DNA of 64,000 nt from Verrucomicrobiia bacterium (GCA_035532155.1 DATKRN010000022.1:8078-72077); one strand, 5' to 3'; positions 1 to 43,374 are shown, counted from the first letter of the stretch. Numbers and translations: made by a program. Notes: generated by a model not told the origin, from the sequence alone.

Positions 1-3000
1 CGCGGCCGACGCTGCCCACCCCGGCGCACACCGACCGACGCGAGCAGCCGTGGTCGGGATCGAGGCAGGTCCAGTGGGCGTGGCGGGGCTGTGCCGGGAA
101 GCGGCCGGAGGCGATCCGGCGGCCCTCCTGCTCGAACCGGTCGACGAAGCTCCCGAGCGCGGCCGCGGGGAGCTCGCGCAGCTCGTCCGCCTCGTGCGGG
201 GGCAGCGGCCGGTCCCCGTCGATCCGCAGCCCGCGACGGTCGAGCGGACGGTCGGGCCATCGCACCGAGGCGGGAGAGTGCCCCACATACCAGGTGCGGG
301 CGAGCGCGGGAACGATGGCCGGGAGCGGAGTCACCGCCCCCCGGGCGAGCGCCAGAGCGTAGACCGGCAGCTGCCAGTCGGAGGGGCCCTCCTGGTCGCT
401 GCCGTGGATCGCCGCCAGGATCGCCCCGCGGGCGGGGACTGCACGGGCGGTCTTGTAGTCGAGCACCTCGACCGCGCCCTCGTCGAGGGAGCGGACCCGG
501 TCGATCCGCCCCCGCAGCTCCAGCCCCTCCAGCGCCAGGCGAAAGTCAAGCTCCACCCCGAGCGTCTCCCCCACGCCGCCCCCGACCGCGACCCAGTGGC
601 GGGCGTAGCGGTCGACCAGCCGGCGCAACCACGCCTCGGCCGCCCGCAGCTCCAGTCGCCCGGGGATCTCGGGAGCCAGCCAGGGGAGGATGTGTCGCTC
701 CAGACACTCGTCGGCCGCGGCGCGAAAGCGGTCGGGATCAGCCCGCCAGCTGGCCTCGACCCGGTGGAGCTGCTCCAGCAGCCGGTGGGCGGCCTCGCCG
801 CGCAGCTGGGCCGGGGTGGGCGGGCCGGGGCGGACGACGCGGTGGTAGTAGAGGCGCCGGGGACACGCGAGCCATTCGTTGAGAGCGGTGGTGGAGAGCT
901 GGAGCGGTGCCGACCCGACCGCCGGGGCGCCCTCCACGGGGTCGAACTCCGGCAGCGTGGCCAGCAGGCGGCCGAGGTCCAGCTGCGGCAGGGCGACCGC
1001 CTCGGGCCGGAGCGCCGGGCGGGCGGTCACGGCCGCGGCGAGCGCCGCCGCGAGGTCACTGCGCGTGAGGTCCGGGAGCGCGGGAACAGCCCGCTCGACC
1101 ACCCCGGCCGCTCGCAGAGGCCGGAGCAGGGACGAGGGCTGCGCCACCCGCCCGTCGTACCGCTCGGCGTAGGTGCAGGTGACAGCCTGGGTGGCCCGCG
1201 TGAGCGCCACCACCAGGTGGCGGGCCTCCTCCTCCCCCTGGCGGTCGACCTCCAAGATGGTGTCCTGCAGCTCGGGCACCCGCTCCAACAAGAGCGCCAG
1301 CTCGTCGGGGGCGAGCAGACCCAGGGGGCGGGCCCTGGCCGGGAAGATCCCGACGGCACAGCCCGCCACGAAGACCCGCGCAAAGGCGAGCCCGCGGGCC
1401 TGGCGGATGGTGAGCAGGTGGACCGCATCGCGATCGGGATCGGGCTCGTCGTCCTCCTCGACGGCGCGTTGCAGCGCCACCTCTAGGAGGTCGAGGGCCA
1501 CCTCGAGCGTCGGCGGCCGCCCCCGCAGGCGCGCCTCGACATCGGTGATCGCGCGCAGCGCCGCGGTCACCCCCCGGAGCACCGCGGCCAGCACCGGATC
1601 GGCCGGGGCGGCGGCAAAGAGCCCGGTCGCCGCCGCCACCTGGCCCACCCAGATCAGCAGTCTGTGGGGATCCACAGGACCGGGACTGAGAGCCGTTGCA
1701 GCCGCCTGGGCCCGCGCCAGCCGGCGCGCGAGCCGGCGCAGCTCGGCCCGCAGCGTCCCGTCCGCCTCCCTCCCCTCGCGCTGGACGGATTGCGCCTGCG
1801 CCTCGGCGAGCTCCACCCGCACGGTGCGGAGCAGGTCGGAGCCGTGGGCGCCGCTGCGCCGCCGCAGCCAGCGCCGGGCCGCTGGCGACAGCCCGCCCCA
1901 AGCGGCCTCCAGCAGGGTGGCGACGCGCTGCGGGTCGGCGGGTGCGGCGGACCAGCGCAGCCAGGCGCGCAGGGACCCCAGGGCGGGGTGGCGACTCCAG
2001 CCCAACCGTCCGGCACCGCACGGGACCCCGGTCAGGGCGAGGGCCTCCACGAAGACCGGCCCGAGCGGGGAGACTCCGCGCAGCAGGATCGCCACGTCGG
2101 CATAGCGCCCCGACCCCTGAAGCACCCAGGCCTTGATGGCACGCGCCACCCCGAGCGCTTCGGCGGACTCGTCCTCGGCCCGCCAGATCTCCACCGCCGG
2201 CCCGACCCCGGGGAGCGCGCTCCCGGCCGGGGAGGCCGGCTCCCCGGCGGCTCGCGACAGGGCGATCGGGTCGAGCGCCGCCGCCGCCGCCAGCACCGCC
2301 GGAGGCCGGCGCCGCGACTCCGGCAGGACCCAGTCCGCGACCGCCAGCGAAAGGGGCAGCTCCTCCTCGAACCAGCGAGCGCTGCCACCCCCCGCGCCGC
2401 CGAGCGCCTGGCGGGGATCTCCCGCCACCGCCAGCCGCCCCGGCGGGGGCAGCCCGAGGGCGAGTGCGCGCACGAGATGGAACTGAGCCGGACCCCAGTC
2501 CTGGGCATCGTCGATGAGGGCCGCGTCGAAGCGGGCGGCGACCCGCGACGGATCCTCCAGCAGATGCTCGGCGGCCAGCGCCACCGCGCCGTCGAGGTCG
2601 ATGGCGCGGGCGGACTCGAGCACGTCCTGGCTGCGGGCGGCGATCACCGCGAGCTCCGCCAGCGCCACCGGCGCCCCGTGGAGCCGCGCCGCCAGGAGGC
2701 CGGGGCCGACCAGAGCCTGCCGGAGCGCCGCCACCGCCCGGCTGGCGTCCTCGATGCAGGCGGCGTCGGCGTGGAGGGGCGCGAGGCGGGGAAGCTGGCG
2801 GCGCGCCCGCTCCAGGGTCGCGCGCGCCGCCAGCCAGGTGCCGAACCCGGTGAGCACCTGCGGCCCCGGCCCGGCATCCTCGCGCGACCCGATCACCCAG
2901 CGGGCCAGATCGCCAAGGGTCCAGACGACCGCGAGCGGCTCGGCTCCCGGAGCGGACCGAGTCAGCCTCCGGCTAACATCGGCCCGAGCCCGGCTCGAGT

Positions 3001-3151
3001 CGACCACCACCAGAATGCGGGCGGGGTCCGTGCCCCCGGCAACGAGATCCCGGTGGAGGCGAGCGAGCAGATCGGTCTTGCCGGCAGCGGGACCGCCGAG
3101 GATCCGCACCGGGCCCCGCAGCGGTGGCGGCGGCGCGTCGGTCTCGATCAC
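1..3151 (-). CDS. UvrD-like helicase fused to a RecB/Cas4-type PD-(D/E)XK nuclease (AddA/AdnB-like). Partial: the C-terminus runs off the window start.
   Basis: The minus-strand frame is open from 3151 to the window edge, so it is absent from the ORF track. The N-terminus reads VRILGGPAAGKTDLL (Walker A) by reverse-complementing ~3060-3151. The nuclease motif ...GRIDRV...EVLDYKTAR... is read directly at ~440-520, followed by a Cys-rich tail (C-x6-C-x5-C) typical of Fe-S nuclease domains. The GTG start overlaps the TGA stop of the upstream TetR gene (GTGA). Confidence 0.6.
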   Translation of the reverse strand, partial: MIETDAPPPPLRGPVRILGGPAAGKTDLLARLHRDLVAGGTDPARILVVVDSSRARADVSRRLTRSAPGAEPLAVVWTLGDLARWVIGSREDAGPGPQVLTGFGTWLAARATLERARRQLPRLAPLHADAACIEDASRAVAALRQALVGPGLLAARLHGAPVALAELAVIAARSQDVLESARAIDLDGAVALAAEHLLEDPSRVAARFDAALIDDAQDWGPAQFHLVRALALGLPPPGRLAVAGDPRQALGGAGGGSARWFEEELPLSLAVADWVLPESRRRPPAVLAAAAALDPIALSRAAGEPASPAGSALPGVGPAVEIWRAEDESAEALGVARAIKAWVLQGSGRYADVAILLRGVSPLGPVFVEALALTGVPCGAGRLGWSRHPALGSLRAWLRWSAAPADPQRVATLLEAAWGGLSPAARRWLRRRSGAHGSDLLRTVRVELAEAQAQSVQREGREADGTLRAELRRLARRLARAQAAATALSPGPVDPHRLLIWVGQVAAATGLFAAAPADPVLAAVLRGVTAALRAITDVEARLRGRPPTLEVALDLLEVALQRAVEEDDEPDPDRDAVHLLTIRQARGLAFARVFVAGCAVGIFPARARPLGLLAPDELALLLERVPELQDTILEVDRQGEEEARHLVVALTRATQAVTCTYAERYDGRVAQPSSLLRPLRAAGVVERAVPALPDLTRSDLAAALAAAVTARPALRPEAVALPQLDLGRLLATLPEFDPVEGAPAVGSAPLQLSTTALNEWLACPRRLYYHRVVRPGPPTPAQLRGEAAHRLLEQLHRVEASWRADPDRFRAAADECLERHILPWLAPEIPGRLELRAAEAWLRRLVDRYARHWVAVGGGVGETLGVELDFRLALEGLELRGRIDRVRSLDEGAVEVLDYKTARAVPARGAILAAIHGSDQEGPSDWQLPVYALALARGAVTPLPAIVPALARTWYVGHSPASVRWPDRPLDRRGLRIDGDRPLPPHEADELRELPAAALGSFVDRFEQEGRRIASGRFPAQPRHAHWTCLDPDHGCSRRSVCAGVGSVGR

Positions 3152-3888
3152 GGCCGCGGGCTGACGCCCTCCGGTACGGATCGTGGAGGCCGGCGGTCCG
3201 CTGGTTCCGGGGAGGTCGCGGCCAGCGCCCGCAGCGGCTCGAGCCGGACGAACCGGCTGAGCTCGCCGGCCAGGGTCGGCAGGTCGCACTCAGGGTGCAG
3301 CCGCATCGCCACCCCCTCCACCAGAGCGCAGAGGGCATCCCCGGCCCACTCCGGCATCCCCTCCACCGATCCCACCGACGCCGCCAGGCAGGCGGCGCCG
3401 ACGCCGTGCCGAGCGGCGTCGATGCGCTCGGTGACGGAGAGGTCGGTGCCATCGACGGCCCGGAACAGCAGCCGAAACGCGACCGGGTGGCCGCGGGCGA
3501 AGTCGAGATAGACCATGAACTGGTGGGCGAGCCCGGCCGATCCCTCCCCCGGCGCCGCCACCCCGAGGCGATCGAGCAGCAGCCGGCAGTGCTGCTCGAC
3601 CACCGCCATCAGGGCGGCCCGCTTGTTGGGGAAGTACTGGTAGATGAGCGGCTTGCTCACCCCCGCGGTGGCGGCGATCGAGTCCATCGTGGTGGCGACC
3701 ACGCCATCGCGTGCGAACGCGATCAGGGCCGAGTCGATGATCTGGGCGCGGCGATCGTCCCGGCTGAGTCGCAGCGCCCGCGACCGTGCCGGCGTGGCCC
3801 GCGATCCGCGCAGGCGCCGCGTGACTCGCCCGATGGTCTCGACGGCCGGCACCGCCGGCCAGCGCGACACCGGCAGCTCGCCTCCCAT
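3148..3888 (-). CDS. TetR/AcrR family transcriptional regulator
   Basis: Six-frame ORF with the N-terminal HTH signature ...ALIAFARDGVVATTMDSIAATAGVSKPLIYQYFPNKRAAL. The start codon is uncertain (possibly internal). Its stop overlaps the downstream helicase-nuclease start. Confidence 0.8.
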   Translation of the reverse strand: MGGELPVSRWPAVPAVETIGRVTRRLRGSRATPARSRALRLSRDDRRAQIIDSALIAFARDGVVATTMDSIAATAGVSKPLIYQYFPNKRAALMAVVEQHCRLLLDRLGVAAPGEGSAGLAHQFMVYLDFARGHPVAFRLLFRAVDGTDLSVTERIDAARHGVGAACLAASVGSVEGMPEWAGDALCALVEGVAMRLHPECDLPTLAGELSRFVRLEPLRALAATSPEPADRRPPRSVPEGVSPRP

Positions 3889-3918
3889 CCTGGGCCGAGA
3901 TCATACAAGGACGCCGAC

Positions 3919-3934
3919 GTGGCCCGCCGGCCAC
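3919..3934. promoter_or_regulatory. Inverted repeat GTGGCC-N4-GGCCAC in the divergent TetR/SBP intergenic region. Candidate TetR operator.
   Basis: Read directly in the 110-bp intergenic region between the divergent starts at 3888 and 3999. Confidence 0.3.
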
Positions 3935-3998
3935 CTGCGTGGCGCCCTGATATCCTGTCGAGACCCTGTCGGGATGGGGCGGGGAGGAGGGTCGCGAC

Positions 3999-5820
3999 CG
4001 TGAGTCGACCAGGACTGCGACGGGCCACGGGAGCGGCCGCGGTGGTGGCGGGGGCGCTGGTCCTCAGTGCCACCATGGGAGTCGCCGCCGGTGCCCGCGA
4101 GGGGATCTCCGCGCGAGCGACCGGGGGCACCGTTCGCTTCGCCCTGCCGCCGGCGGTGACCCCGACCTACATCTACCCGCTCTACCCCTTCGCCGACTAC
4201 ACGTATGCCAATCAGAGCTTCTTCGAAGCGCTGATGTACCGGCCGCTGTACGCGTTCGGCGACAACGGCTCGCCCCTGCTCAACCGGAGCGCGAGTCTGG
4301 CCGATCCCCCCTCGTTCTCCAACGGCGGCCGCACCGTCACGATCACGCTGAAGCCGTACCGCTGGTCGGACGGGCGTCCGCTGACCTCGCGGGACGTCGA
4401 ATTCTGGGAGAACCTGGTGGTGGCCAACAAGGCCGACTTCGGCCCCTATGTGCCCCACAACTATCCCGACAACGTGGTCTCCGCCACCTACCCGGCCCCG
4501 AACCGCTTCACCCTCACCTTCAATCGCGCCTACAACCACTTCTGGCTCCTCTACAACGAGCTCAGCCAGATAACGCCGATGCCCCAGCACGTCTGGGACC
4601 GGGTCAGCCTGACTGGGCCGGCCGGCAACCTGGACCAGACTCACGCCGGGGCGGTGGCGGTGAACCGGTTCCTGACCCGTCAGGCGAGTCAGCTCGACTC
4701 GTATGGCCGCAACCCGCTCTGGCGGGTGGTGGACGGCCCCTGGCGACTCAGCGCCTACACGCCAGCCACCGGCTTCTCGGTGTTCACCCCCAACCCGGCC
4801 TACTCCGGTCCTGACCGGCCCCGGATCCGCCGCTTCGAGGAGGTGCCCTTCACCAGCGACGCGGCGGAGTTCAACGCCCTGCGCGCCGGCACCATCGACT
4901 ACGGCTACCTACCCCTATTCGATCTCAGCCAGCGGAGCTACTTCGAGCACCACGGATACCGGGTGTCGGCCTGGCCGCTGTGGGCGTTCGACAACCTCAC
5001 CCTCAACTTCGGCAATCCCCGGCTGCGGCCGATCCTGGGCCAGCTCTATGTCCGCCAGGCGCTGCAGCACCTGGTCGATCAGCCCAGCTACATCCGCCAC
5101 ATCTTCCACGGCTATGCGGTGCCCACCTACGGGCCAGTGCCGCAGCAGCCGGTCACCCCCTTCGTCAGCCCGCAGGAGCGCCGCAACCCTTACCCCTTCA
5201 GCATCGCCGCCGCCCGAGCCCAGCTGGCCGCCCATGGCTGGCGGGTGGTTCCCGACGGGCGCTCGGTCTGCCAGCGGGCCGGCACGGGACGTCAGCAGTG
5301 CGGCGCTGGGATCGCGGCCGGCACCGCGCTCAGCCTCAACTTCGAATACCCCAGCGGGAGCGTCGCCGCCACCCAGGAGGCGCAGGCCTACAAGTCGGCG
5401 GCCGCGGCCGCCGGGATCCAGGTCCAGCTCGCCTCGCTGCCGCTCAACACCATCAACTCGCAGGGCGACTACTGCCCCGGGGCGGGATGCAAGTACGCGC
5501 TGCTCAGCTACGGCCTGGTGGGCTGGGACTACGGCCCCGACTACTACCCAACCGGGGGCGAGATCATCGGCACCGGCGCCAGCGGCAACAGCGGCGCCTA
5601 CAGCGACCCCATCAACGACCGCAACATCGCCGCCACCCATGTCGAGCCCGGGCTGGGTCCGCTCTACCGCTACCAGAACTATGTCGCGACCCAGCTGCCC
5701 CTCCTGTTCTTCCCCACCCCGGTGTTCCAGGTCTCGGTGATCCGGGACACCCTCCAGGGTGTCGGCCCCCAGTCACCCCTGACCACCATCAGTCCCCAGA
5801 GCTGGTCGCTGAGCGGCTGA
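3999..5820 (+). CDS. ABC transporter substrate-binding protein, family 5 (peptide/oligopeptide-type), secreted
   Basis: This is the C-terminal 607 aa of ORF 3124..5820. A GTG start is preceded by GGGGAGGAGG. An RR-containing signal-like N-terminus is followed by family-5 SBP-like sequence. No permease or ATPase genes are adjacent (orphan). Confidence 0.75.
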
Positions 5821-5821
5821 G

Positions 5822-5837
5822 CCCCGGCGCCCCGGGG
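5822..5837. terminator. GC-rich hairpin (CCCCGG-cgc-CCGGGG) between convergent genes. Candidate bidirectional terminator.
   Basis: Stem-loop read directly. No U-tract, as is common in high-GC genomes. Confidence 0.25.
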
Positions 5838-5847
5838 AGCGGTCGGC

Positions 5848-6150
5848 TCAGTCGACGCCGCCGGCGACCAACTGGCGCTGCACCACCTCCTGCAGCGCAA
5901 ACACCAGGTCCAGGGCCTGCGCGGTCGAGCCGGACTCGGACGCCAGCGCCCGCTCGGCGGGCAGGATCGCCTCCTGCATCGACGCCAGCAGCTGCCAGCA
6001 GGGGATGGGGCAGCGATCGTGATGGCGCAGGTTCGCGCTCTCCAGCTCCCACAGCAACGAGTCCAGCTGCGCCAGCCAGGCGCGTCCGGTCACCCTCGTC
6101 CCCGCCAGGGAGGGAGCGGCCAGGGTGAGCGGGCGACGCGGAAGGTTCAC
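5848..6150 (-). CDS. Small hypothetical protein (~100 aa), translationally coupled to the upstream DUF1707/LiaF-like gene
   Basis: This is the C-terminal part of ORF 5848..6528. It reads as non-repetitive helical sequence (...LAQLDSLLWELESANLRHH...ALDLVFALQEVVQRQLV). A candidate GTG at 6148-6150 overlaps the TGA of the upstream gene. Confidence 0.35.
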   Translation of the reverse strand: MNLPRRPLTLAAPSLAGTRVTGRAWLAQLDSLLWELESANLRHHDRCPIPCWQLLASMQEAILPAERALASESGSTAQALDLVFALQEVVQRQLVAGGVD

Positions 6151-6881
6151 GTCTCCTCGTCCCCGCCGCCGCGCCAGCGCTGCTGGTGGCGCCACGCCCG
6201 GACCTGATGCCAGGGCGTCGCCTCCCCCGCCCACGATCGCGAAGCCGCCGCAGCAGCCTGCGGGTGCTCCCGCCCGGAGCCAGCCGGCTGCTGGCTGCGC
6301 ACCCTCACCTCCCCCATCAGCGCCAGCGCCCTCACCCGCACCAGCGGGGTCCCGGGGCGCACCGGCACGGGGGCGAGGTGGAGCTGCTTGCCGCCCATGA
6401 TCGCCAGTCCCTGGAGATCGACATCCACCCCCTCGGGCACGACGATGTCGACGCCGCCCATCAGGGCGAGCACGTCGACGACGACCTCGGGAGCGTCGAT
6501 CGTCGCCTGGCGGAGGTCGAGGACACATTCCCCCATCACCGCGGCCACCACGCTGTGCGCGTGGACCCGCCAGCGACCCTGCCGGCTGACCCGCGACATC
6601 ACCGCCAGGGTGAGGTGCACCGCGCGCCGGCGCGACGCGTGACCCGCCCCGGCGAAGACGGCCACCGGCTCGGGATCGGCCGGCAGCCCCTCCAGCACCG
6701 CCGCCAGCTCGGCGTAGCTGCGCGCCGCGTAGGCGGCTCCGGAACGGTCCGCCAACTCGCCGAATGTGAGCCGTCCCTGGGCGCAGGATTCGCGCAGACG
6801 GTCCACCGCCCGCTCGCGGTCGACGTCAGCGACCAGCACGGTCGCCCGGCCCCCGACAGCTCCCGGCGGCTGCGTGGACAT
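6147..6881 (-). CDS. DUF1707 domain protein with a LiaF-like (DUF2154) C-terminal domain. Envelope-stress-associated family.
   Basis: ORF 6147..6881. The N-terminus ...DVDRERAVDRLRESCAQGRLTFGELADR... is DUF1707-like. The central region ...VVAAVMGECVLDLRQATIDAPEVVVDVLALMGGVDIVVPEGV... is LiaF-like. ATG start with a GGGAGGAG RBS. Confidence 0.65.
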   Translation of the reverse strand: MSTQPPGAVGGRATVLVADVDRERAVDRLRESCAQGRLTFGELADRSGAAYAARSYAELAAVLEGLPADPEPVAVFAGAGHASRRRAVHLTLAVMSRVSRQGRWRVHAHSVVAAVMGECVLDLRQATIDAPEVVVDVLALMGGVDIVVPEGVDVDLQGLAIMGGKQLHLAPVPVRPGTPLVRVRALALMGEVRVRSQQPAGSGREHPQAAAAASRSWAGEATPWHQVRAWRHQQRWRGGGDEET

Positions 6882-7034
6882 CGACCGCTCCTCCCTGTCG
6901 ATGCACGGCGGACGAGGGTCCCGACGGTGGGCGCGAGCCCGGTGCGCCCGCGGCGGGTGGCAGGATTATAGGCGCACCGTCCCCCGTCTCCGTGCGCTCG
7001 TGACACGCGCGCGCGGACCGGGCGCCGGCCCGCT

Positions 7035-8200
7035 TCAGTCCCCGGCGAGTCCCCCGCAACCGTGGTAGCCGGGGTCGTCGATCGTCTCCGCCCGGCGCGC
7101 CAGGCACAGCGGTCGGACGGTGTCGCACATCACCGCCAGCTCGTCGGGTGCGGTGCGCCCGAGCGCGGCCTCCCGCAGTCCCGGCTGCGGCCCGTGGGCC
7201 AGCCGGGAGGAATGCAGGGTGATCGATCCCGGCGCCACACCGCGGCGGGAGCCGACGCTCCCCGCGACGTAGTAGAGGACGTCTTCGGAATTGAGGTTGG
7301 CGGGGTCGTAGGGAATCGGGACCGCGAGCGCCTCCCAGTCCAGCCGGCGCGAACCGCAGGAGCAGCGGACAAAGCCGCGGCCCTCGACGGTCTGGTGGGC
7401 GGGCGGTGGCACGTGAACGCGGCCGGCCACCAGCTCGAAATCAGCAATGTTGAGGGTCAACGGGTACAGCGACCCGTCCCAGCCGACGACATCGAAGGGA
7501 TGATGACGGAGCCGGGAGGACTGCAGGCCGCCGCGGATGCGCACGCGCAGGTGTGCTCGCCCTCCTCGCCGTCGGTGGGCAGCGGCGTCGGCGGGTGGCA
7601 ATCGCGATGGTAGGAGGGCGCCCCTCGAGCAGCTGGCCCGAGGGAGTGCGGTAGCGCCGCGGGATCGTGATCACGCCGGGGCTGGTCAACTCAACGTGGA
7701 GCTGCGGGCCCTCAGGTTGGAAGCGGTCGGTCGTCCCCCGCGGGATCACGCGGTAGTCGCCGCCGCCGTAGGCGAGGTCGCCGAAGACGGTGGCGAGCAC
7801 CCCCTCTCACCGATGCACGAACACCACCTCGTCACCCTCGCTATTGCGGTAGCACCACGGCATCGGCTCCATGCAGTGGCGCAGCGCCACCTCGACGTCG
7901 TCGTTCCGGACCCGGGTGCGCGGCCGCCGCACCGGGTCCGCCTGGGCGCCAGCACGCCGGTGCGCAGGGGGTGATGGAGGTGACGGAGAGGGACCCACTC
8001 GTCATGCGCGGTCGGCTCCCAGTCCTGGCTAGCCGTGTAGCCGAGGGGCGGACTCGGGCGGGAGAGGGTCGACTCATCGCCGCTGACCCCCTCCAGCCCA
8101 TCACCTCCGCGCAGAGCAGGCGCCCCTCCCAGCGGAGCTGGGTGGGGCGCTGGGCGGGGAGCTCGCCCCGCTGCTGGTACACGGGCATCCGAACCGTGCC
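7035..8200 (-). pseudogene. hmgA: Homogentisate 1,2-dioxygenase (hmgA) remnant. N-terminally truncated, with an in-frame TGA and at least one frameshift.
   Basis: HGO-like segments lie in three frames. ORF 7807..7998 reads ...EPMPWCYRNSEGDEVVFVH-R-stop. ORF 7441..7800 reads ...LATVFGDLAYGGGDYRVIPRGTT...RYRTPSGQLLEG. ORF 7035..7601 reads ...HHPFDVVGWDGSLYPLTLNIADFE...GSITLH...HGPQPG...DELAVM. The TGA at 7807-7809 lies in the same frame between the first two segments. A frameshift occurs around 7540-7610. There is too little room for a full N-terminus before the FAH gene. Confidence 0.6.
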
Positions 8201-8204
8201 GCCC

Positions 8205-9052
8205 AAGGGGCCGGGATCCCGTCCTGGGATTCCAGCCGGCTCCGGGAGCGCGATCGCGGGCGCACCCGCTGCCGCAGGTGCCGGTGGCGAGGACATCGCC
8301 GCAGACGGCCCGGCTGCCCCGGCTGGCCTGGGCCAGCATCTCCCCGCAGCTCCAGGGGAGGTCGGCCAGCCAAGCCCTCGACGGCGGCCGGCCGGAGACC
8401 GTGGCGGTCATCTCCAGCTCGCAGCCCCCGCCCCGGCGGCGGTCATGGAGCTCGTCGGGCGTCACCCGGTAGGGGCCGAGGCTGGTGGCGAAGTCGTTGG
8501 CCGTGACCGCTCCCAGCCCGACCGGTCGCTCTGCCCGCTGCAGGTCGCGCGCGCTCCAGTCGTTGCAGATGCAGAGGCCGGCCAGGTGCCGCTCGGCCCG
8601 GTCGGGGCTGAGGTCGTGCCCCTCCCGCCCGACCACCGCGGCCATCTCCAGCTCGAAGTCGAGCTCGCGGCAGCCGGGCGGCGCCGTCACCGGGGTCCCG
8701 TCGCCCACCACCACGTGGGGAGTGCTGACGTAGAAGCCGGGTCCCGGTACCACGCGGGTTCGACCACCAGGCCGCGCGCCCCCCACCTGGTGAGCACCTG
8801 CGCCTCGAAGGCGTAGCAGTCACGCAGCGCCGGGGGGCGCGGGACCGGCGCCAGCCGCACCACCTCGGCCAGCGCAACCACCTCGCCGGGGTCGCGACCG
8901 GCCCGCTCGCCGGCCGCCGCCAGCCGCTCTTCGTGATCACCCAGCAGGTCAACCAGGCCAGGGCTCGCCTCCCATCCCTGCAGGCGGTCATTCAGCACCA
9001 GCCGGACCCTCTCGTCGGCCGAATCGAGAGGACGGGAGGTGGCCCAGCGCAC
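8205..9052 (-). pseudogene. Fumarylacetoacetate-hydrolase (FAH) family protein, split by a 1-nt frameshift in a G/C run
   Basis: The N-terminal fragment is ORF 8687..9052 (...ALRDCYAFEAQVLTRWGARGLVVEPAWYR then out of frame). The remainder lies in ORF 7746..8786 (...VVPGPGFYVSTPHVVVGDG...LDFELEMAAVVGREG...NDWSARDLQ...GDVLATGT). The junction is at ccgggtcccgg (~8743-8753). The exact C-terminal end is unclear. Confidence 0.45.
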
Positions 9053-9189
9053 CGCGACTCAGCTGCTCGTCAGCCGGGGCGGGCCGCCCCGGGGACTTCA
9101 CCGGCGGCCAGAGCCCAGTCCAGACCGGCCCATCTCACCGGTGTAGGAGGGGGCGCAGCGCCGCCCCCCGCGTCCCCTACGATGCCCGG

Positions 9190-9627
9190 ATGAGTTCCGA
9201 CCCACCCCCCAGCGCCGGTCTCCCCGAGTTCGCTCCCGGACCGCTCTCGCTGGGGTTCGACCAGCTGCTCGGGTCCGAGATCATCGAGGCCGGTCCGGGA
9301 CGCGTCCACCTGCGGCTGGTGCTGACGCCAGCCCACCACCAGCCGTTCGGGATCGTGCACGGGGGCGTGCACGCCGCCCTCGCCGAGAGCGCGGCCTCGA
9401 TCGCGGCCAGCTTGAATGCGGGGCGGATCGCGGTCGGCATCAGCAACCACACGAGCTTTTTGCGCGCCGTTCGCGACGGGGTCCTGGACGCCGTCGCCAC
9501 CCCGGTCCACACCGGGCGGCGGGTCCAGCTGTGGGAGGTCGCCATCCACCGTGGCGAGGAGCTCGTCGCCAGTAGCAGGGTGCAGCTGTTCGTGCTGGGG
9601 GACCCGGGCCAGCCCGGCAGCGCCTGA
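9190..9627 (+). CDS. PaaI/4HBT family hotdog-fold thioesterase
   Basis: ORF with ...PFGIVHGGVHAALAESAASIAAS..., characteristic of PaaI-type thioesterases. Confidence 0.75.
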   Translation: MSSDPPPSAGLPEFAPGPLSLGFDQLLGSEIIEAGPGRVHLRLVLTPAHHQPFGIVHGGVHAALAESAASIAASLNAGRIAVGISNHTSFLRAVRDGVLDAVATPVHTGRRVQLWEVAIHRGEELVASSRVQLFVLGDPGQPGSA

Positions 9628-9643
9628 GCACCCCGGCCCCCGC

Positions 9644-12418
9644 CTACGCCGTTGAGGTGGGCTGCGCCCCCAGCACCGCCTGCGCCGCCGCGAGTCGAGC
9701 CGCCGGCACCCGGAACGGGGAGCAGGAGACGTAATCCAGCCCGATCCGCTCGCAGAGCGTGATCGAGGCCGCGTCGCCGCCGTGCTCTCCGCAGATCCCG
9801 ATCTCGATGTCGGGCCGAGTCGCCCGCCCCTGTTCGACCGCGATCGCCATCAGCTGGCCCACGCCGTCCGGGTCGAGGTGCTCGAACGGATTGGCGGGTA
9901 GCACCCCGTCCCGCACGTACTGGCCGAGGAACTTGCCCTCCGCGTCGTCGCGCGAGACCCCATAGGTCATTTGGGTGAGGTCGTTGGTGCCGAAGGAGAA
10001 GAACTCGGCCGCCTCCGCGATCTGGCCGGCGGTGAGGGCGGCCCGGGGAACTTCGATCATGGTCCCGATCTTGATCGACAGGCGCGTGCTGTGCTCGCCG
10101 GCGACCGCCTGCAGGGTGGCCTCGATCACGGCCCGCGTGCGACGCAGCTCCTCGACGTGACCGACCAGCGGCACCATGATCTCCGGGACCGCGCGAACGC
10201 CGCGGCGACGGAGCTCGCAGGTGGCCTCCGCGATCGCCCGGGTCTGCATCTCGATGATCTCCGGGTAGAGCAGTCCCAGGCGACAGCCGCGCAGGCCCAG
10301 CATCGGATTCTGCTCGCGCAGATCCTCGACCGCCGCCAGCAGCTGCTCGGCGTGCGCCAGCTCGGCGCCGTGCTCGCCTCGCCCGCGGCGCTCCGAGACC
10401 TCGACCAAAAGGGCGTCGTGGTTGGGCAGGAACTCATGCAGCGGCGGGTCGATCAGGCGGATGATCACCGGCAGGCCCCGCATCGCCTCCAGGATCCCGA
10501 TGAAGTCCTGGCGCTGGAAGGGCAGCAGCTCGGCCAGGGCTTCGCGGCGTCCCTGGGGAGTGGCGGCCAGGATCATCGCCTGCACGTGCGGCAGCCGGTC
10601 CTGCTGCATGAACATGTGCTCGGTTCGGCACAGGCCCACACCCCGGGCGCCGAAGTCCCGGGCGCGCCGGGCGTCCTCGGGGGTGTCCGCGTTGGCGAAG
10701 ACGCCCAGCCGGCGGACCCGGTCGGCGAGACTCAGGAGCTGGCGCAGGTCACCCGAGACGGCCGGCTCCACCGTCGGCACCTCCCCCAGGATGACCCGAC
10801 CGGTGGTGCCGTCGAGGGTGAAGACCTCACCCTCGCGCAGGGTCACCCCTCCGGCGGTGAACTGGCGCCGGCGCAGGTCGACGGTCACCGACTCGGCGCC
10901 GGAGACACACGGCTTGCCCATCCCGCGCGCCACCACCGCCGCGTGCGAGGTGCGGCCGCCGCGAGCCGTGAGCACCCCCTCGGCGGCGATCATGCCGTGG
11001 ACGTCGTCGGGGTTGGTCTCCACCCGCACCAGGATGCACGGCGTCCCGGCCCGGGCCATCGCCTCGGCGCGGTCGGCGTCAAACACCGCCGCCCCGGTCG
11101 CCGCCCCCGGGGATGCCGCCAGGCCGGTGGCGAGCACCTGCACCGGGGCCCGGGGGTCGAGGCCGCGATGCAGCAGCTGGTCGATCTGGTCGGGCTCAAC
11201 CCGCAGCAGCGCCTCGTCGCGGGTGATGAGGCGCTCGCGCAGCATGTTCACCGCGATCCGCACCGCCGCCTGGGCGGTGCGCTTGGCGGTGCGCGTCTGG
11301 AGCATGTAGAGATGGCCGCGCTCGATCGTGAACTCCATGTCCTGCACGTCGCGGTAGTGGGCCTCCAGCCGCCGGGCGATCCGCTCGAACTCGCGGTAGA
11401 CCGCCGGCAGCTGCTGGCGCAGGGTCGCGATCGGCTGGGGCGTGCGGATTCCCGCCACCACATCCTCGCCCTGGGCGTTGAGCAGGTACTCGCCGAACAC
11501 ACCGCGCTCCCCGGTGGCGGGGTCGCGGGTGAAGGCGACGCCGGTGCCGGAGGTCTCCCCCATGTTGCCAAACACCATCATCTGGACATTGACCGCGGTG
11601 CCCAGGGTGTGGGGGATGTGGTTGTACTCCCGGTAGGCGATCGCGCGGCGCGTGTTCCAGGAGCGGAACACGGCCCCGATCGCGTGCTCCAGCTGGCGCA
11701 TCGGGTCGTCGGGGAACTCCTCCCCGGTGGCGCTGCGCACCAGCTGACGCATCCGCGCCACCAGCCGCTCCAGCGGGGCCACCCCGAGGTCGGCGTCGGT
11801 GGCGGCGCGGGCGCGTCGCTTGGCCTCGGCGAGCGCCTCCTCGAAGGGTTGCGGGTCCGCCCCCAGCACGATCTTGGCGAAGAGCTGGATGAAGCGACGG
11901 TAGGCGTCGAGCGCGAAGCGGCGGTCGCCGGTCCGCTGGGCGAGCCCCTCCAAGGTGGTGGGGGTGAGCCCGAGGTTCAGCACCGTGTCCATCATCCCGG
12001 GCATGGAGAACGCCGCCCCCGAGCGCACCGAGACCAGCAGCGGATCCGCGGGGTCGGCGAACTGGCGGCCGGCCGCCCGCTCCAGCCACCGCAGTCCCGC
12101 CTGGACCTCCTCCCAGAGCCCGGCGGGGAGCCGGTTGCCCGCCCCCAGGAAGGCCAGGCAGGCCTCGGTCGTGATCGTGAAGCCGGGCGGGACCGGCAGG
12201 CCGGCGCGGGTCATCTCCGCCACCCCGGCGCCCTTGCCTCCGAGCAGCGAACGCATCTCGCGCCCGCCCTCGTCGAACCGCCACACCCAGTGCCGGCCGG
12301 CGCGGGCGCGGGTCCGCCGGGGGGACCCGGCGCCGGCGGGCTCGCGGCTCGGACGGCGGGGACCGGGGCTCTCGGGTCGCTGGGTCGCGCGCTTGGGGGC
12401 CGCCTTGGGCGCCATCAC
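9644..12418 (-). CDS. ppdK: Pyruvate, phosphate dikinase
   Basis: This is the C-terminal ~924 aa of ORF 9644..12835. It carries WVWRFDEGGREMRSLLGGKGAGVAEM, a PEP-utilizing phosphohistidine region, and the TIM-barrel C-terminus ...GICGEHGGD.... The start is chosen at the ATG giving MAPKAAPK; the upstream 139 codons are Arg-rich read-through. Confidence 0.85.
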   Translation of the reverse strand: MMAPKAAPKRATQRPESPGPRRPSREPAGAGSPRRTRARAGRHWVWRFDEGGREMRSLLGGKGAGVAEMTRAGLPVPPGFTITTEACLAFLGAGNRLPAGLWEEVQAGLRWLERAAGRQFADPADPLLVSVRSGAAFSMPGMMDTVLNLGLTPTTLEGLAQRTGDRRFALDAYRRFIQLFAKIVLGADPQPFEEALAEAKRRARAATDADLGVAPLERLVARMRQLVRSATGEEFPDDPMRQLEHAIGAVFRSWNTRRAIAYREYNHIPHTLGTAVNVQMMVFGNMGETSGTGVAFTRDPATGERGVFGEYLLNAQGEDVVAGIRTPQPIATLRQQLPAVYREFERIARRLEAHYRDVQDMEFTIERGHLYMLQTRTAKRTAQAAVRIAVNMLRERLITRDEALLRVEPDQIDQLLHRGLDPRAPVQVLATGLAASPGAATGAAVFDADRAEAMARAGTPCILVRVETNPDDVHGMIAAEGVLTARGGRTSHAAVVARGMGKPCVSGAESVTVDLRRRQFTAGGVTLREGEVFTLDGTTGRVILGEVPTVEPAVSGDLRQLLSLADRVRRLGVFANADTPEDARRARDFGARGVGLCRTEHMFMQQDRLPHVQAMILAATPQGRREALAELLPFQRQDFIGILEAMRGLPVIIRLIDPPLHEFLPNHDALLVEVSERRGRGEHGAELAHAEQLLAAVEDLREQNPMLGLRGCRLGLLYPEIIEMQTRAIAEATCELRRRGVRAVPEIMVPLVGHVEELRRTRAVIEATLQAVAGEHSTRLSIKIGTMIEVPRAALTAGQIAEAAEFFSFGTNDLTQMTYGVSRDDAEGKFLGQYVRDGVLPANPFEHLDPDGVGQLMAIAVEQGRATRPDIEIGICGEHGGDAASITLCERIGLDYVSCSPFRVPAARLAAAQAVLGAQPTSTA

Positions 12419-12657
12419 CTGCCTCCACGCAGAGCCGCTCCACCACCACCGGCAACCGTGAGCGGATCGACCCGCCTTGCGCTGCCTGCTCCCCCGCCGG
12501 CGAGTGTAGCGAAGCGCCGGTCGGCCCCGGGGCAGGGCCCCCGACCGGGAGCGGCCCGAGGCCCCGGCGCCCCGGCGGGCCGATCGGGTTCGGTGCCAGC
12601 GGATCTTGGGCACCGCTCTGACCTCGGACCGTCGCGAGCGGTGGGAGCCCGGCCCGG

Positions 12658-13536
12658 ATGACCGACGGGACCCGCCGGCTGATCGGGGGGTTGACCCTGG
12701 CCGGCCTTCTGATCGGGGTGGGGGCGGGCTCGCGCCGCCGAGCGCCCGCCGACCGGACCGGTGGCTGGCGCCCCCGCTCGGGTCTCGATTCCAGTACCAG
12801 CTCCAGACCTCGTCGTCGCCGGCCCTTGCCGGCACCGGGGGGATCGAAGTCGGGCTCTGCGCCCGCCCCGCCGAGGGTGGCGCCTGCGTCCGACCGCGGG
12901 TCTTTCGGCATCGACGTCTACGGTCCCGATGGGAGGACCCCCAACCGGGCGGCGGTCCGCGCCATCCGCGCCCGGGGCGGCTCTACCATCTGCTACGTGG
13001 ACGCGGGCACGTGGGAGAGCTGGCGTCCCGACGCGGCGCGGTTTCCCCGCCACCTTCGGGGCCGGCCCAACGGGTGGCCGGGGGAGCACCGGCTCGACAT
13101 CCGCCAGACCGGAGAACTGCTGCCGCTGATGGCCGCCCGGGTGGCCCGCTGTCGGAGCGCCGGCTTCGAGGGCGGCGAGGTCGACAATGTCGATGGGTTC
13201 GCCAACGCCACCGGCTTTCCGCTCACCTCCGCCCAGCAGCTCCGCTACAACCGCGACCTGGTCGCGCTCGCCCACCGCCAGGGGCTCGCCGCCGGACTCA
13301 AGCACGACCTCGGACAGGTGCGGGCGCTCCCGCCCGCTGTCGACGTCGCCATCGACGGGCAGTGCGCGCAGTACGCGGAGTGCGATCGTCTCCGGCCCTT
13401 CCTGGCCGCCCACAAGGCCGGGTTCGAGATCGAGTACACCCTGGCCCCCGCTCGCTTCTGCCCGGCCGCCGCGGGACGGAGCGCAGGCGCCAAGCGGCCC
13501 GCCCTGCGCGCCCGGCCGTGGACGCCGTGCCGCTGA
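12658..13536 (+). CDS. Glycoside hydrolase family 114 (endo-alpha-1,4-polygalactosaminidase-like), membrane-anchored
   Basis: ORF carrying ...FGIDVYGPDGRTPNRAAVRAIRARGGSTICYVDAGTWESWRPDA...GFEGGEVDNVDGF...QCAQYAECD.... The N-terminus has a hydrophobic anchor. A WQWQL-like upstream motif (RWLAPPLGSRFQYQLQ) sits in a different frame (ORF 12606..13592), suggesting a possible N-terminal frameshift. Confidence 0.6.
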   Translation: MTDGTRRLIGGLTLAGLLIGVGAGSRRRAPADRTGGWRPRSGLDSSTSSRPRRRRPLPAPGGSKSGSAPAPPRVAPASDRGSFGIDVYGPDGRTPNRAAVRAIRARGGSTICYVDAGTWESWRPDAARFPRHLRGRPNGWPGEHRLDIRQTGELLPLMAARVARCRSAGFEGGEVDNVDGFANATGFPLTSAQQLRYNRDLVALAHRQGLAAGLKHDLGQVRALPPAVDVAIDGQCAQYAECDRLRPFLAAHKAGFEIEYTLAPARFCPAAAGRSAGAKRPALRARPWTPCR

Positions 13537-13588
13537 GGCCGGCCCCGGCCCCCACCGGGGACCGCAGCCCGCTGAAGGCCGCGCCCCG

Positions 13589-14926
13589 ATGATGGCCACC
13601 GCCCGCTCGCCGGATGACGGCCGACCGCTGGCGCTCGACCTCTTGCCCGACACCGCCGAGGTGACCCCATCGGGGGAGCTGCGGGTGGGAGGCGTCGACC
13701 TCCTGGAGGTGGCGCGGATCGTGGGCACGCCCTGCTATGTCTACGACGAGGCCACCCTGTGGGCCCGCTGTCGGGCCACGGTGCAGGCCTGGCCCGGCGG
13801 CGCCGCCTACTCGTCGAAGGCGTTCAGCTGCGTCGCGATGGACCGGCTGGCTGCCGGGGCGGGGCTGCGGGTGGATGTCGCCAGCCTGGGCGAGCTCCAG
13901 GTCGCCCTCGCCGCCGAGGTGGCGCCCGAGTTGATCGTCTGCCACGGCAACAACAAGTCCGACGCCGAGCTCCAGCTGGCGCTCGCCCGGGGCGTGGGGC
14001 GGATCGTGGTCGACTCGTTCGACGAGATCGATCGGCTCGAGCGGCTGGTCGCGGCGGGACCGTACTCAGCCCCCGGGGTGTGGTTGCGGGTGACCCCAGG
14101 GGTGGACCCCCACACCCATCGGGCGGTGGCGACCGGGCAGCTCGACTCCAAGTTCGGGCTGCCGGTGGACGGCGGCCTGGCGGACGCCGCCTTGGACCGC
14201 CTGGCCCGCTCGCGCCGGCTGCGCCTGGTGGGCCTGCACACCCACATCGGCAGCCAGGTGGTCGAGCTGGAGCCCTTCCGGGTCGCCGCCCAGCGGGTGG
14301 CCCGGGTCGCGGTCGCGCGCCGGCTCGCCGAGCTCTGCCTGGGGGGCGGACTCGGGGTCGCGTCGGTGACCGGCGAGCTTGTGCCCACCCTCTCCGACTG
14401 GGCCGAGGCCGGCGAGCGCGGCTGCCGGGAGGCGGGGCTTCCCCACGATATCCACCCATCCGCGGAATTCGGGCGGGCGGTGGTGGCCCGGGCGGGCCTC
14501 ACCCTCTACACGGTGGGGACGATCAAGCGGCTCCCCCACGGGCGCACCTTCGTGTCGGTCGACGGGGGGATGGGCGACAACCCCCGACCCGCGCTCTACG
14601 GCAGTCGCTACGAGGCGTTCCTGCCCCGCGACCCCTTGGCCCCCCGCGGGCTGCCGGCCGATGTGGTTGGCCATCACTGCGAGTCCGGCGACGTGCTGGT
14701 CCGGGACGGGTGGCTGCCGCGGGACACAAAGGTGGGCGACTGCCTGGCGGTGCCGGTGACCGGTGCCTACGCTCACGCCATGGCGTCGACCTACAACCGG
14801 GTGCCCCGGCCCCCGGTGGTGTTCCTCGCCGAGGGCCGGGTCCGCCAGGTGGTTCGGCGCGAGACGGTGGAGGACATCCTGCGGCTGGAATCGGATCTGC
14901 AGCTGGCGCGGGGCGCCCGCGGCTGA
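13589..14926 (+). CDS. lysA: Diaminopimelate decarboxylase
   Basis: This is the C-terminal 445 aa of ORF 13187..14926. It is a PLP-dependent fold III decarboxylase (...CYVYDEATL...YSSKAF...HTHIGSQ...GGGLGV...CESGD...). ATG at 13589 with a GAAGG RBS. Confidence 0.85.
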   Translation: MMATARSPDDGRPLALDLLPDTAEVTPSGELRVGGVDLLEVARIVGTPCYVYDEATLWARCRATVQAWPGGAAYSSKAFSCVAMDRLAAGAGLRVDVASLGELQVALAAEVAPELIVCHGNNKSDAELQLALARGVGRIVVDSFDEIDRLERLVAAGPYSAPGVWLRVTPGVDPHTHRAVATGQLDSKFGLPVDGGLADAALDRLARSRRLRLVGLHTHIGSQVVELEPFRVAAQRVARVAVARRLAELCLGGGLGVASVTGELVPTLSDWAEAGERGCREAGLPHDIHPSAEFGRAVVARAGLTLYTVGTIKRLPHGRTFVSVDGGMGDNPRPALYGSRYEAFLPRDPLAPRGLPADVVGHHCESGDVLVRDGWLPRDTKVGDCLAVPVTGAYAHAMASTYNRVPRPPVVFLAEGRVRQVVRRETVEDILRLESDLQLARGARG

Positions 14927-15044
14927 CCCTCGCGGGCAGCCGCAGGCGCGGACGGGACCGCCGGGACCGGTGCTACTGTGATTACATCGGCACCCCGGCG
15001 GTGGCGATCAGGAATGCACGTCCACCCGCCTGAGGATCCGCTCG

Positions 15045-16943
15045 ATGGGCATGCACGCAGGGGCCAGCGGACACGGAGGGGCGGGACGGTTTGCCCGCGG
15101 GGTCGGGCGCGGTCCCCAGCCCCAGGACCTGCGCCCGGTGCGACGCAGCACCGTGCTCCGGGTGGCGCGGCTGTTCCAGGCCTACCGTCGCCAGGTCCTG
15201 ATCGTGCTCCTGATCCTGGTGGTGGTGGCGCTGCTGGGGGTGGTCAACCCCTACATGCTGAAGCTCATCATCGACGTCGCGTTCCTCCACCACAGCATGC
15301 GGCTGCTGCTGATCTTCGTCGCCATCATGCTGATCACGCCGGTGATCAGCACCGCCCTGGGGGTGTGGCAGACCTATCTCAACGCGATCGTGGGCCAGCG
15401 GGTGATGCAGGACCTGCGGCTCGCCCTCTACACCCACCTGCAGCGGCTGCCGCTGCGCTTCTTCACCGCCACCCGTACCGGCGAGATCCAGTCGCGCCTC
15501 GCCAACGACATCGGCGGGGTCGACAGCGTGATCACCAACACCGCGACCTCGATCGTCTCCAACCTGACCCGCGCCGCGGCCACGATCGTGGGCATGCTGG
15601 TGCTCAGCTGGCAGCTGACCGCGCTCTCGCTGGCGCTGCTGCCGGTGTTCCTCTACGTCACCGTGCGGGTCGGCGAGGTTCGCCGCCGGGTCAGCGGCGA
15701 GACCCAAGAGACCCTGGCCGACCTCTCCGCGCTCGCCGAGGAGACGCTCTCGGTGAGCGGCATCCTGCTCACCAAGGTCTTCGGGCGCGAGTCGTTCGCG
15801 CGCCAGCGCTACGCTCGCGAGACCGGCCGCCTCACCCAGCTGATGATCCGCCAGCAGATGGTGGGACGCTGGTTCTTCGGGTTCATCTCGACCTTCTTCT
15901 CGATCATCCCCGCGCTGGTCTATCTCGCCGCCGGGGCGATGCTGTTCGGCTCCCACCCCGCCGGGCATGCGGCCTTCGCCACCAGCGGGGCCGACTCCAT
16001 CGGCACGATCGTGGCCTTCACCACGCTCCAGTCGGGGCTCTTCTTCCCGCTCGGCCAGCTGCTCAACATCCAGGTGGAGATCCAGGGCGCCTTCGCCCTC
16101 TTCGACCGCATCTTCGAGTACATCGACATCCCCCTCGAGATCACCGAGCGTCCCGGGGCGCTGGCGATCCCCAGCCAGGAGATCCGGGGGGCGGTGAGCT
16201 TCGAGCACGTACGCTTCCACTACCAGCCGGGCCAGGGCGTGGCCGCGATCGACGAGGTCTCGTTTCGCGCCGAGCCCGGCCAGCTGGTCGCGCTGGTGGG
16301 TCCCAGCGGGGCCGGCAAGACCACCCTCACCTACCTGCTCGCCCGCCTCTACGACGTCGACGCCGGACACGTGCGGGTGGACGGACACGACCTCCGCGAC
16401 CTCACCTTGGCCACCGTCCAGGGGGCGATGGCGATCGTGACCCAGGAGGTGTTTCTCTTCCACAGCACGATCCGCGAGAACCTGCTGGTGGGCAAGCCCG
16501 ACGCCACCGCCGAGGAGGTGGAGGCGGCCGGCCGCGCCGCCGCCATCCATGACCGGATCATGGAGCTGCCCCAGGGCTACGACACGGTCGCCGGCGAGCG
16601 CGGGTATCGGCTGAGCGGGGGCGAGAAGCAACGGATCGCGCTCGCCCGGGCGATCCTCAAGGACCCCCGGATCCTGGTGCTGGACGAGGCCACCTCCGCG
16701 CTCGACACTCACAGCGAGCGGCTGGTCCAAACCGCCCTCGACCGGCTGATGGCGGGCCGGACCACCCTGGCGATCGCCCACCGTCTCTCCACCGTGATGG
16801 CGGCCGACCAGATCCTGATGCTGGAGCGGGGCCGGATCGTGGAGCGCGGCACCCATGCCCAGCTGCTGGCCGCGAACGGCGCCTACAGCCGACTGTACCT
16901 CAGCCAGTTCGCCGGCCAACCGAGCGAGGCCGCCGCCAGCTGA
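15045..16943 (+). CDS. ABC transporter, fused permease/ATP-binding exporter (MsbA/MdlB-like)
   Basis: Six TM helices followed by Walker A GPSGAGKTT, signature LSGGEKQRIALARA, and Walker B ILVLDEATSALD. The true start may be an internal start codon. Confidence 0.85.
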   Translation: MGMHAGASGHGGAGRFARGVGRGPQPQDLRPVRRSTVLRVARLFQAYRRQVLIVLLILVVVALLGVVNPYMLKLIIDVAFLHHSMRLLLIFVAIMLITPVISTALGVWQTYLNAIVGQRVMQDLRLALYTHLQRLPLRFFTATRTGEIQSRLANDIGGVDSVITNTATSIVSNLTRAAATIVGMLVLSWQLTALSLALLPVFLYVTVRVGEVRRRVSGETQETLADLSALAEETLSVSGILLTKVFGRESFARQRYARETGRLTQLMIRQQMVGRWFFGFISTFFSIIPALVYLAAGAMLFGSHPAGHAAFATSGADSIGTIVAFTTLQSGLFFPLGQLLNIQVEIQGAFALFDRIFEYIDIPLEITERPGALAIPSQEIRGAVSFEHVRFHYQPGQGVAAIDEVSFRAEPGQLVALVGPSGAGKTTLTYLLARLYDVDAGHVRVDGHDLRDLTLATVQGAMAIVTQEVFLFHSTIRENLLVGKPDATAEEVEAAGRAAAIHDRIMELPQGYDTVAGERGYRLSGGEKQRIALARAILKDPRILVLDEATSALDTHSERLVQTALDRLMAGRTTLAIAHRLSTVMAADQILMLERGRIVERGTHAQLLAANGAYSRLYLSQFAGQPSEAAAS

Positions 16944-16945
16944 GC

Positions 16946-16962
16946 GGGCCGCCCCGCGGCCC
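16946..16962. terminator. GC hairpin (GGGCCG-ccccg-CGGCCC) between the convergent ABC exporter and glyQS
   Basis: Read directly in the 30-bp convergent intergenic gap. Confidence 0.25.
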
Positions 16963-16973
16963 GGACGCCGGGG

Positions 16974-18323: not shown

Positions 18324-18399
18324 GGGCTCCTCCAGCTGCGCCGGCCGACCGGCTGCCACCGGGGCGCCATTGTACGGGCTCGTCTCCCCCCGGGCGGCC

Positions 18400-41645: not shown

Positions 41646-41663
41646 GGGGCACGGAGCCTCCGA

Positions 41664-42878: not shown

Positions 42879-42881
42879 CCT

Positions 42882-43373: not shown

Positions 43374-43374
43374 C

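Follow-up and report, generated by a model that had tools for sequence, protein, structure and literature searches.

Within a 64,000-nucleotide (nt) stretch of DATKRN010000022.1 (8078-72077; GCA_035532155.1, Verrucomicrobiia bacterium), here called the window and taken at its full length, the region 7035-9052 carries two adjoining pseudogenes on the minus strand, an FAH-family hydrolase and then a homogentisate 1,2-dioxygenase (HGO). The locus is very probably the two-gene remnant of a homogentisate (tyrosine/phenylalanine) catabolic operon that was inactivated in the lineage of the window and has since drifted at a near-neutral rate. Neither gene can yield a functional protein. This is ordinary bacterial gene decay, and the two genes are an unannotated pseudogene pair from known families.

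Identity of the two genes

The layout of the locus is as follows.

8189..9052, minus strand: pseudogene of an FAH-family hydrolase (PF01557) that starts with GTG at 9052-9050 and has lost its stop codon
7035..8188, minus strand: pseudogene of a short-type HGO (HgmA-like cupin), beginning with ATG at 8188-8186 and ending in its original TGA at 7037-7035
7035..7544, minus strand: residual open reading frame (ORF) of 169 amino acids (aa), a C-terminal HGO fragment (HUY96838.1, locus tag VMW47_04305), publicly annotated as a hypothetical protein

The hydrolase is recognised directly, since the Pfam FAA_hydrolase profile matches its frame-2 segment with E=5.1e-37 and 128 bits against a gathering cut-off of 23.9 bits. 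This match covers profile positions 32-187 of 214, whereas that of an intact orthologue covers 4-213. Raw HGO fragments with frames uncorrected gave no Pfam match and, in NCBIfam, a weak partial hmgA match only (23 bits), and homology was therefore demonstrated with a frame-corrected translation. The 383 aa of this translation align with 100% coverage and 70% identity to two proteins of 385 aa each, P0001 and P0002, which were also the top matches among 4397 proteins found at E<=1e-10. The HGO orthologue is named homogentisate 1,2-dioxygenase by PGAP, and P0001 matches Pfam HgmA_N. A profile of the family, which is a short branch of HGOs of ~385-400 aa, aligns to the HGOs of the PDB (3zds, E=2e-11; 1ey2, E=1.7e-9), the His/Glu/His ligands of the iron falling at corresponding positions. 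The possibility that P0124 represents population variation in the 169-aa fragment was rejected, since its DNA is identical and only residue 1 differs (V for M, owing to a GTG start).

Lesions relative to intact syntenic orthologues

The genes encoding P0001 and P0002 lie in two loci, L001 (ENA) and L002 (NCBI GCA_027313425.1), whose gene neighbourhood is that of the window. The order UvrD-TetR-SBP5-h101-DUF1707-HGO-FAH-4HBT-PPDK-OrnDC-ABC-HisRS, where h101 is a 100-aa gene and 4HBT a PaaI thioesterase, is common to the window and L001, and is shared in part, through PPDK, by L002. FAH is uninterrupted in L001 (318 aa) and L002 (309 aa), as is HGO in both, and an intact orthologue occupies the same syntenic position in a third locus, L007. 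None of the six lesion positions of the window (five frameshifts and a TGA) is interrupted in the orthologues. In tblastn comparisons PPDK, PaaI thioesterase, DUF1707, SBP_bac_5, TetR, UvrD, OrnDC, the ABC transporter and HisRS each match their orthologue in a single frame, and among the syntenic genes only FAH and HGO are split into pieces in different frames. The ENA assembly ERZ27256799 holds both L001 and L003; the pseudogene population and a sister species with an intact FAH-HGO operon, whose PPDK is ~84% identical at the amino acid level, are thus found in one metagenome.

The lesions were mapped from a three-way DNA alignment of the window, L001 and L002. Those below are given in the direction of transcription, together with the substitution of an iron ligand discussed further on.

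between 8737 and 8736, minus strand: FAH 1-nt deletion causing a frameshift (orthologues CCGG[C]CTTC; window CCGG-CTTC)
8195..8255, minus strand: degraded FAH 3' end, deletions of 6, 6 and 51 nt, with the FAH stop codon and the FAH-HGO spacer missing
8096..8097, minus strand: HGO 1-nt deletion 1, frame 0 to 2 (orthologues GATGGG[T/G]CTGG)
7942..7943, minus strand: HGO 1-nt deletion 2, frame 2 to 1 (orthologues CGCCGA[T]GGGGGA; window CGCCCA-GGCGGA)
7807..7809, minus strand: in-frame TGA in place of the conserved Gly of FVH-x-G-x-G, G128 being among the near-invariant columns
7623..7624, minus strand: HGO 1-nt deletion 3, frame 1 to 0 (orthologues CTGGAG[C]ACGC)
7551..7552, minus strand: HGO 1-nt deletion 4, frame 0 to 2 (orthologues ACTTCA[C]CCT)
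7302..7304, minus strand: Pro codon replacing an Fe(II)-ligand His (H297P, equivalent of human His335; alignments to 1ey2 and 3zds)

The uninterrupted frame of HGO is thus broken by four 1-nt deletions and one in-frame TGA, and HGO-homologous sequence is distributed over all three frames of the minus strand as five segments in the order 0, 2, 1, 0, 2. An original prediction, made from the sequence of the window, had described homology in three frames and a TGA within FVHR*EGVLATVFG, and both observations hold; the orthologues read FVHQG(H/Q)GVLAT at this point. It had also proposed an N-terminal truncation of hmgA, the upstream region being too short for ~90 residues. This part is mistaken, as the family itself is ~385 aa long and the translation covers it completely. 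The error arose from comparison with canonical HGOs of 430-445 aa, and from the first 82 codons, which are present in two other frames, having gone unrecognised. The gene retains 1154 nt of the 1158 nt found in the orthologues.

In FAH, neither an intact ORF nor a complete C-terminal domain remains, since the frame is shifted at 8737/8736 and ~20 codons (63 nt) with the stop codon are gone; the strand GD.V.LE.EG.G.L.N is absent. The frame switch had been predicted at a G/C run, and the 1-nt deletion is indeed there, while the run consists of only two C. Gap sites at the 3' end fall at 8249/8248, 8227/8226, 8206/8205, 8198/8197 and 8195/8194, with the deletions of 6, 6 and 51 nt at the first three, although the placement of these gaps depends on the alignment. 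Decay lesions had been rightly noted in both genes, but the count was too low, as HGO carries four frameshifts rather than one and the loss of the FAH 3' end, stop codon and spacer (8255-8195) was missed. Taken together, the two genes contain five 1-nt deletions, three larger deletions and one TGA, and no insertion relative to both orthologues. Homopolymers at the deletions are runs of at most two to three identical bases.

Loss of conserved and catalytic residues

Substitutions have accumulated at positions that are otherwise hardly ever changed. In HGO, 164 columns are near-invariant, being >=97% conserved among 117 homologues; the window departs from 41 of them, P0001 and P0002 from 10 and 11, and the 117 homologues from 0.8 on average. 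Similarly, 40 of 104 conserved FAH columns (>=95%) are changed in the window, versus 14 in each orthologue.

Iron in HGO is bound by His335, His371 and Glu341 (PMC6337169). The segment PYYHANLNSEE of the family has become PYDPANLNSED in the window, and the Fe(II) triad is thereby broken at the equivalent of His335, with the equivalents of Glu341, His371, His292 and His365 kept. In FAH the residues characteristic of the local family (GPxKGKDF, YAFExH) are not maintained either: GPxKGKDF reads GAVTANDF with both lysines lost, and P182A, K184T, G185A, K186N and H85Q are among the changes. The metal-binding motifs ExE and NDWSARD can still be recognised.

Relaxed selection on the window lineage

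Three intact genes that flank the pair were used for comparison.

9190..9627, plus strand: PaaI/4HBT thioesterase, flank control, single-frame orthologue match, exact protein in four public sources
9644..12415, minus strand: ppdK, 923 aa, control for evolutionary rate, one high-scoring segment pair over residues 1-920 at 84% identity, three branches equal
6147..6881, minus strand: DUF1707 gene, downstream flank, single-frame orthologue match

In the flanking genes the three genomes are equidistant. PPDK amino acid identity is 84.7% between the window and L001, 83.8% between the window and L002 and 83.9% between L001 and L002, with the same pattern in 4HBT, DUF1707 and the 100-aa gene. For HGO the corresponding values are 70.1%, 70.1% and 89.4%, and for FAH 66.7%, 69.3% and 77.9%. 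Uncorrected differences per codon position, split onto the three branches (window, L001 and L002), were as follows for positions 1/2/3.

HGO, window branch: 0.150/0.124/0.178
HGO, L001 branch (approximate): 0.025/0.022/0.146
PPDK, window branch: 0.052/0.044/0.179

Positions 1 and 2 of HGO thus evolve at 4-6 times the rate of the intact lineages on the window branch, nearly as fast as position 3. The acceleration is evident in every HGO segment and, at position 2, in both segments of FAH, the N-terminal one being accelerated at position 1 as well. Selection is accordingly relaxed on the window lineage alone, the PPDK control branches being equal. The G+C content of HGO has risen from 0.47 to 0.525 at second codon positions and fallen from 0.94 to 0.90 at third positions, indicating that its coding composition is being erased.

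Replacement of the locus by a divergent, horizontally acquired copy was considered and rejected, as synteny is exact and the third-position branch lengths of HGO (0.178) and PPDK (0.179) are equal, consistent with vertical descent of both genes over an equal period. By a crude estimate from these rates, both genes would have lost function early on the window branch, ~70% of the branch ago.

Reproducibility of the lesions

The window derives from a metagenome-assembled genome (MAG), and it may be asked whether its lesions are sequencing or assembly errors, or the consensus of mixed strains, both genes being intact in the organism. The exact PaaI protein and the 169-aa HGO fragment were found on contigs of ENA ERZ27256799, JGI 3300031671 and 3300031670, Logan SRR8554483 and an NCBI TPA MAG, the last contig being 230,888 nt long and carrying HUY96837, HUY96838 and HUY96841. 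A literature search by sample and run identifier gave no result. Over window positions 1-19627 the ENA contig k141_197631 shows no gap and one single-nucleotide polymorphism (SNP), and the contig of JGI 3300031671 no gap and three SNPs, none of them within 7035-9052 in either case. The Logan contig, the same in three runs, is 100% identical over 5370-9737. The contig of JGI 3300031670 (L005) aligns to 8877-19627 without gaps and with three SNPs; it ends inside the FAH pseudogene, and two of the SNPs (8911 and 8939) fall in its last 62 nt, with one in the remaining 10.6 kb. These two SNPs could represent strain polymorphism in the pseudogene or an artefact of the contig end.

The lesions are consequently reproducible, three further assemblies being in agreement across several assemblers and sequencing runs, and that they are real is strongly supported by the identical indels in several assemblies together with relaxed selection, which errors cannot produce. 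An explanation by error is extremely improbable. It could draw on the deletions at 8097/8096 and 7552/7551, which touch runs of three identical bases, on the two C touched by the FAH deletion, and on the JGI contig that ends within FAH with two SNPs near its end. Against this, three other assemblies are identical and gap-free, their contig names hint at short-read assemblies of the MEGAHIT type, which rarely add indels, and no syntenic neighbour carries a frameshift; the other frame-shifted gene of the window, GH114 (12658-13536), is likewise free of gaps in the other assemblies. Nor can errors generate ~30 extra substitutions of invariant residues or a 4- to 6-fold rise in rate at codon positions 1 and 2. 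The original prediction had preferred gene decay to sequence error, and had pointed to long intact neighbours; PPDK and other neighbours do give single-frame tblastn matches, ppk1 is among the full-length housekeeping genes, and the shared indels and relaxed selection bear the preference out.

Probable pathway of the intact operon and comparison with known systems

Related loci were collected from genome contigs, and the best 80 of 508, mostly from Gaiellaceae and other Actinomycetota MAGs, were compared. The genome of the window is not among them, one of the search patterns spanning the 8097/8096 frameshift. Where upstream sequence sufficed (74 loci), 55 have an FAH homologue upstream of HGO and encoded by the same strand, and a homologue of 4-hydroxyphenylpyruvate dioxygenase (HppD) lies within 6 kb of HGO in 44 of the 80. 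In the 64-kb window itself tblastn detected no HppD. The linkage to FAH and HppD in the related loci supports the assignment of the intact pair to the lower homogentisate pathway, in which the short-type HGO would be the ring-cleaving enzyme, as its PGAP name, distant homology to PDB structures and linkage to HppD and FAH suggest. Intact FAH orthologues did not reach an NCBIfam equivalog threshold, and the exact reaction of the hydrolase is therefore suggested by its context.

Canonical HmgA/HGD (PDB 1ey2 from human and 3zds from Pseudomonas putida; TIGR01015; HgmA_N PF20510 and HgmA_C PF04209) belongs to the same cupin fold family, and the relatives of the window HGO are likewise linked to HppD and an FAH-family hydrolase. 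In contrast to the canonical enzymes, however, the family of the window copy is short and comes from Gaiellaceae and other Actinomycetota MAGs, and an intact short-type orthologue scores 51 bits with TIGR01015, far below the cut-off of 510. The window copy differs further in being a pseudogene with four frameshifts, one stop and Pro for the His335 equivalent. The FAH family (PF01557; fumarylacetoacetase, HpaG/HpcE-type) has its Pfam domain and its position directly upstream of HGO in common with the window copy, which is set apart by its frameshift, the missing C-terminal strand and stop codon, and the loss of the conserved KGK lysines.

A deletional bias is known for bacterial pseudogenes (PMC2817411 and PMC6054270), and the deletion-only lesion spectrum matches this bias. 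The pair resembles bacterial unitary pseudogenes with such a bias (PMC2817411, PMC2916853 and PMC6054270) in that small frameshifting deletions dominate, insertions are lacking here, substitution is neutral-like and composition converges among codon positions. According to PMC2916853 and PMC6054270, bacterial pseudogenes tend to be purged fast; unlike such quickly purged copies, the pair in the window still has >90% of its original extent, although codon positions 1 and 2 have diverged by ~12-15% in a neutral-like manner. The pyomelanin-producing hmgA mutants of Burkholderia cenocepacia (PMC11218447) are blocked at the same step of the pathway, but those carry recent point mutations or deletions and show a pigment phenotype, whereas the window displays old decay of HGO and hydrolase in an uncultured organism.

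Probable course of decay and alternative explanations

The sequence of events may be envisaged as follows. Inactivation very probably came shortly after the window lineage had diverged from the two closest relatives sampled, and its cause would have been either that the pathway became dispensable or that one gene was hit first and its partner was then useless. Drift since then has brought small deletions, the nonsense codon and many substitutions of invariant residues including the iron ligand, and mutation with the usual bacterial deletional bias would have completed the decay.

Several points weigh against this reading. The rates are uncorrected differences on a tree of three taxa, and third positions have probably approached saturation. 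The support comes from assembled sequence, and the public assemblies may share some read sets, their independence being only partly established. The enzymatic activity of short HGOs is suggested by annotation, distant homology and gene context. Finally, the evidence covers the 64 kb of the window, and the pathway may have been lost altogether or an intact paralogue may reside elsewhere in the MAG. Cluster look-ups of the unnamed NCBI HGO matches returned no intact HGO paralogue of the same MAG, a result that is uninformative and not evidence of absence.

One may speculate that the genes are still expressed, by programmed frameshifting and read-through of the stop, or as functional split polypeptides, given that long ORF fragments such as the 169-aa C-terminal ORF remain and that gene length is almost fully kept. 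This would require five separate frame corrections and one read-through, none of which is found in the orthologues: neither a frameshift nor the stop is conserved there as expected of programmed recoding. An iron ligand has gone, along with dozens of invariant residues, substitution is near-neutral in every segment, and at 73% G+C chance alone is expected to produce long ORFs; expression of this kind can with near certainty be dismissed. Loss of hmgA could also have been adaptive, if HppD is retained elsewhere and homogentisate accumulates and polymerises to protective pyomelanin. Mutation of hmgA is reported to cause pyomelanin formation in B. cenocepacia (PMC11218447), and the linkage of HppD to the short-type family in related loci indicates that ancestors very probably made homogentisate. 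Yet HppD is absent from the 64-kb window, FAH has decayed as much as HGO, so that loss of the whole pathway fits equally well, and the locus provides no positive support. An adaptive loss is improbable, and near-neutral decay of the operon continues to be the preferred explanation.

Implications

The length that survives for this amount of neutral divergence is the one mildly unusual aspect of the locus. HGO is just 4 nt short of 1158 nt, although its first and second codon positions have diverged near-neutrally by ~0.12-0.15 per site. It is nevertheless doubtful that the locus represents an unusually long-lived pair of near-full-length pseudogenes in a free-living soil bacterium. If it did, purging might be unusually slow or deletional bias weak in this lineage, the DNA might retain a role as non-coding sequence, or, provided that hppD survives elsewhere in the genome, hmgA might have been lost adaptively with homogentisate diverted to pyomelanin.

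The locus is of interest mainly for annotation and metabolic inference, and homogentisate degradation should not be ascribed to the organism. Public records label the fragments as hypothetical proteins (e.g. HUY96838.1), and gene callers add an antisense ORF over the dead FAH. Public assemblies list this ORF of 270 aa (8004-8816, plus strand) as a gene; it has no Pfam match and is most likely an artefact of high G+C content. The locus also offers a clean worked case of how pseudogenes can be told from MAG errors without reads, by means of identical independent assemblies and codon-position branch rates measured against syntenic orthologues, and it contributes a minor observation on deletional bias and on the persistence of pseudogenes among uncultured soil bacteria of high G+C content.

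GH114 and the remainder of the window

A further frame anomaly, at the N-terminus of a GH114 gene, had been predicted correctly and consists of two compensating frameshifts, as seen from the phase of G+C at third codon positions (GC3) and from homologue alignments.

12658..13536, plus strand: GH114 gene whose ORF stays open across two compensating frameshifts, one near 12730 and the other near 12905 (~175 nt apart)

The signal peptide and the catalytic domain lie in the frame of the ORF, and ~55 conserved N-terminal codons (FQYQLQ...GGID..LC...RPRVF; PPLGSRFQYQLQ...GGIEVGLCARPAEGGACVRPRVF) lie in another. GC3 phase indicates the other frame over 12730-12870, and all 11 GH114 homologues tested align their N-terminal segment to it (E 1e-7 to 6e-16). 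The closest homologues cover only ~72% of the ORF. The domain of GH114 endo-alpha-1,4-polygalactosaminidase is recognised by Pfam with 179 bits, and this domain and the N-terminal segment are not in one frame. L001 and L002 have no GH114 gene between PPDK and OrnDC; that of the window sits 3.6 kb from the HGO/FAH pair.

The rest of the window is dense with full-length housekeeping genes, including ppk1, murT/gatD, rpsT, holA, Rieske, cytochrome b, glmU-like, prs and recO, which shows that decay is local and not general within the 64 kb. No Rfam family and no tRNA gene was found in the whole window, and hence no RNA gene accounts for its weakly coding stretches. One such stretch, 28300-31000, has weak coding periodicity and contains a 394-aa HTH_28 ORF (28538-29722, minus strand), an uncalled gap at 29722-30374 and tiny ORFs, perhaps the remains of a mobile element or a repeat. 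Short-read contigs of other assemblies end near 31.4 kb.

Two gene arrangements are uncommon. A 729-aa gene at 22959-25148 (plus strand) has an unusual architecture in which a class-I CysRS/MshC-like domain (tRNA-synt_1e) is fused to Glycos_transf_2. At ~40200-45000 (minus strand) the Rieske and cytochrome b genes lie, atypically, between two genes that match PF01654 (cytochrome bd subunit I family), one 422 aa and the other 459 aa long.

NCBI labels the TPA MAG of the window 'Verrucomicrobiae bacterium' and that of L007, which carries an intact orthologue, 'Candidatus Micrarchaeia archaeon'. Both labels conflict with the G+C content of 73%, with genes of actinobacterial type (DUF1707, MurT/GatD, LytR_cpsA_psr and Mtb12_C) and with the nearest HGO relatives, which among the best 80 of 508 loci are Gaiellaceae.

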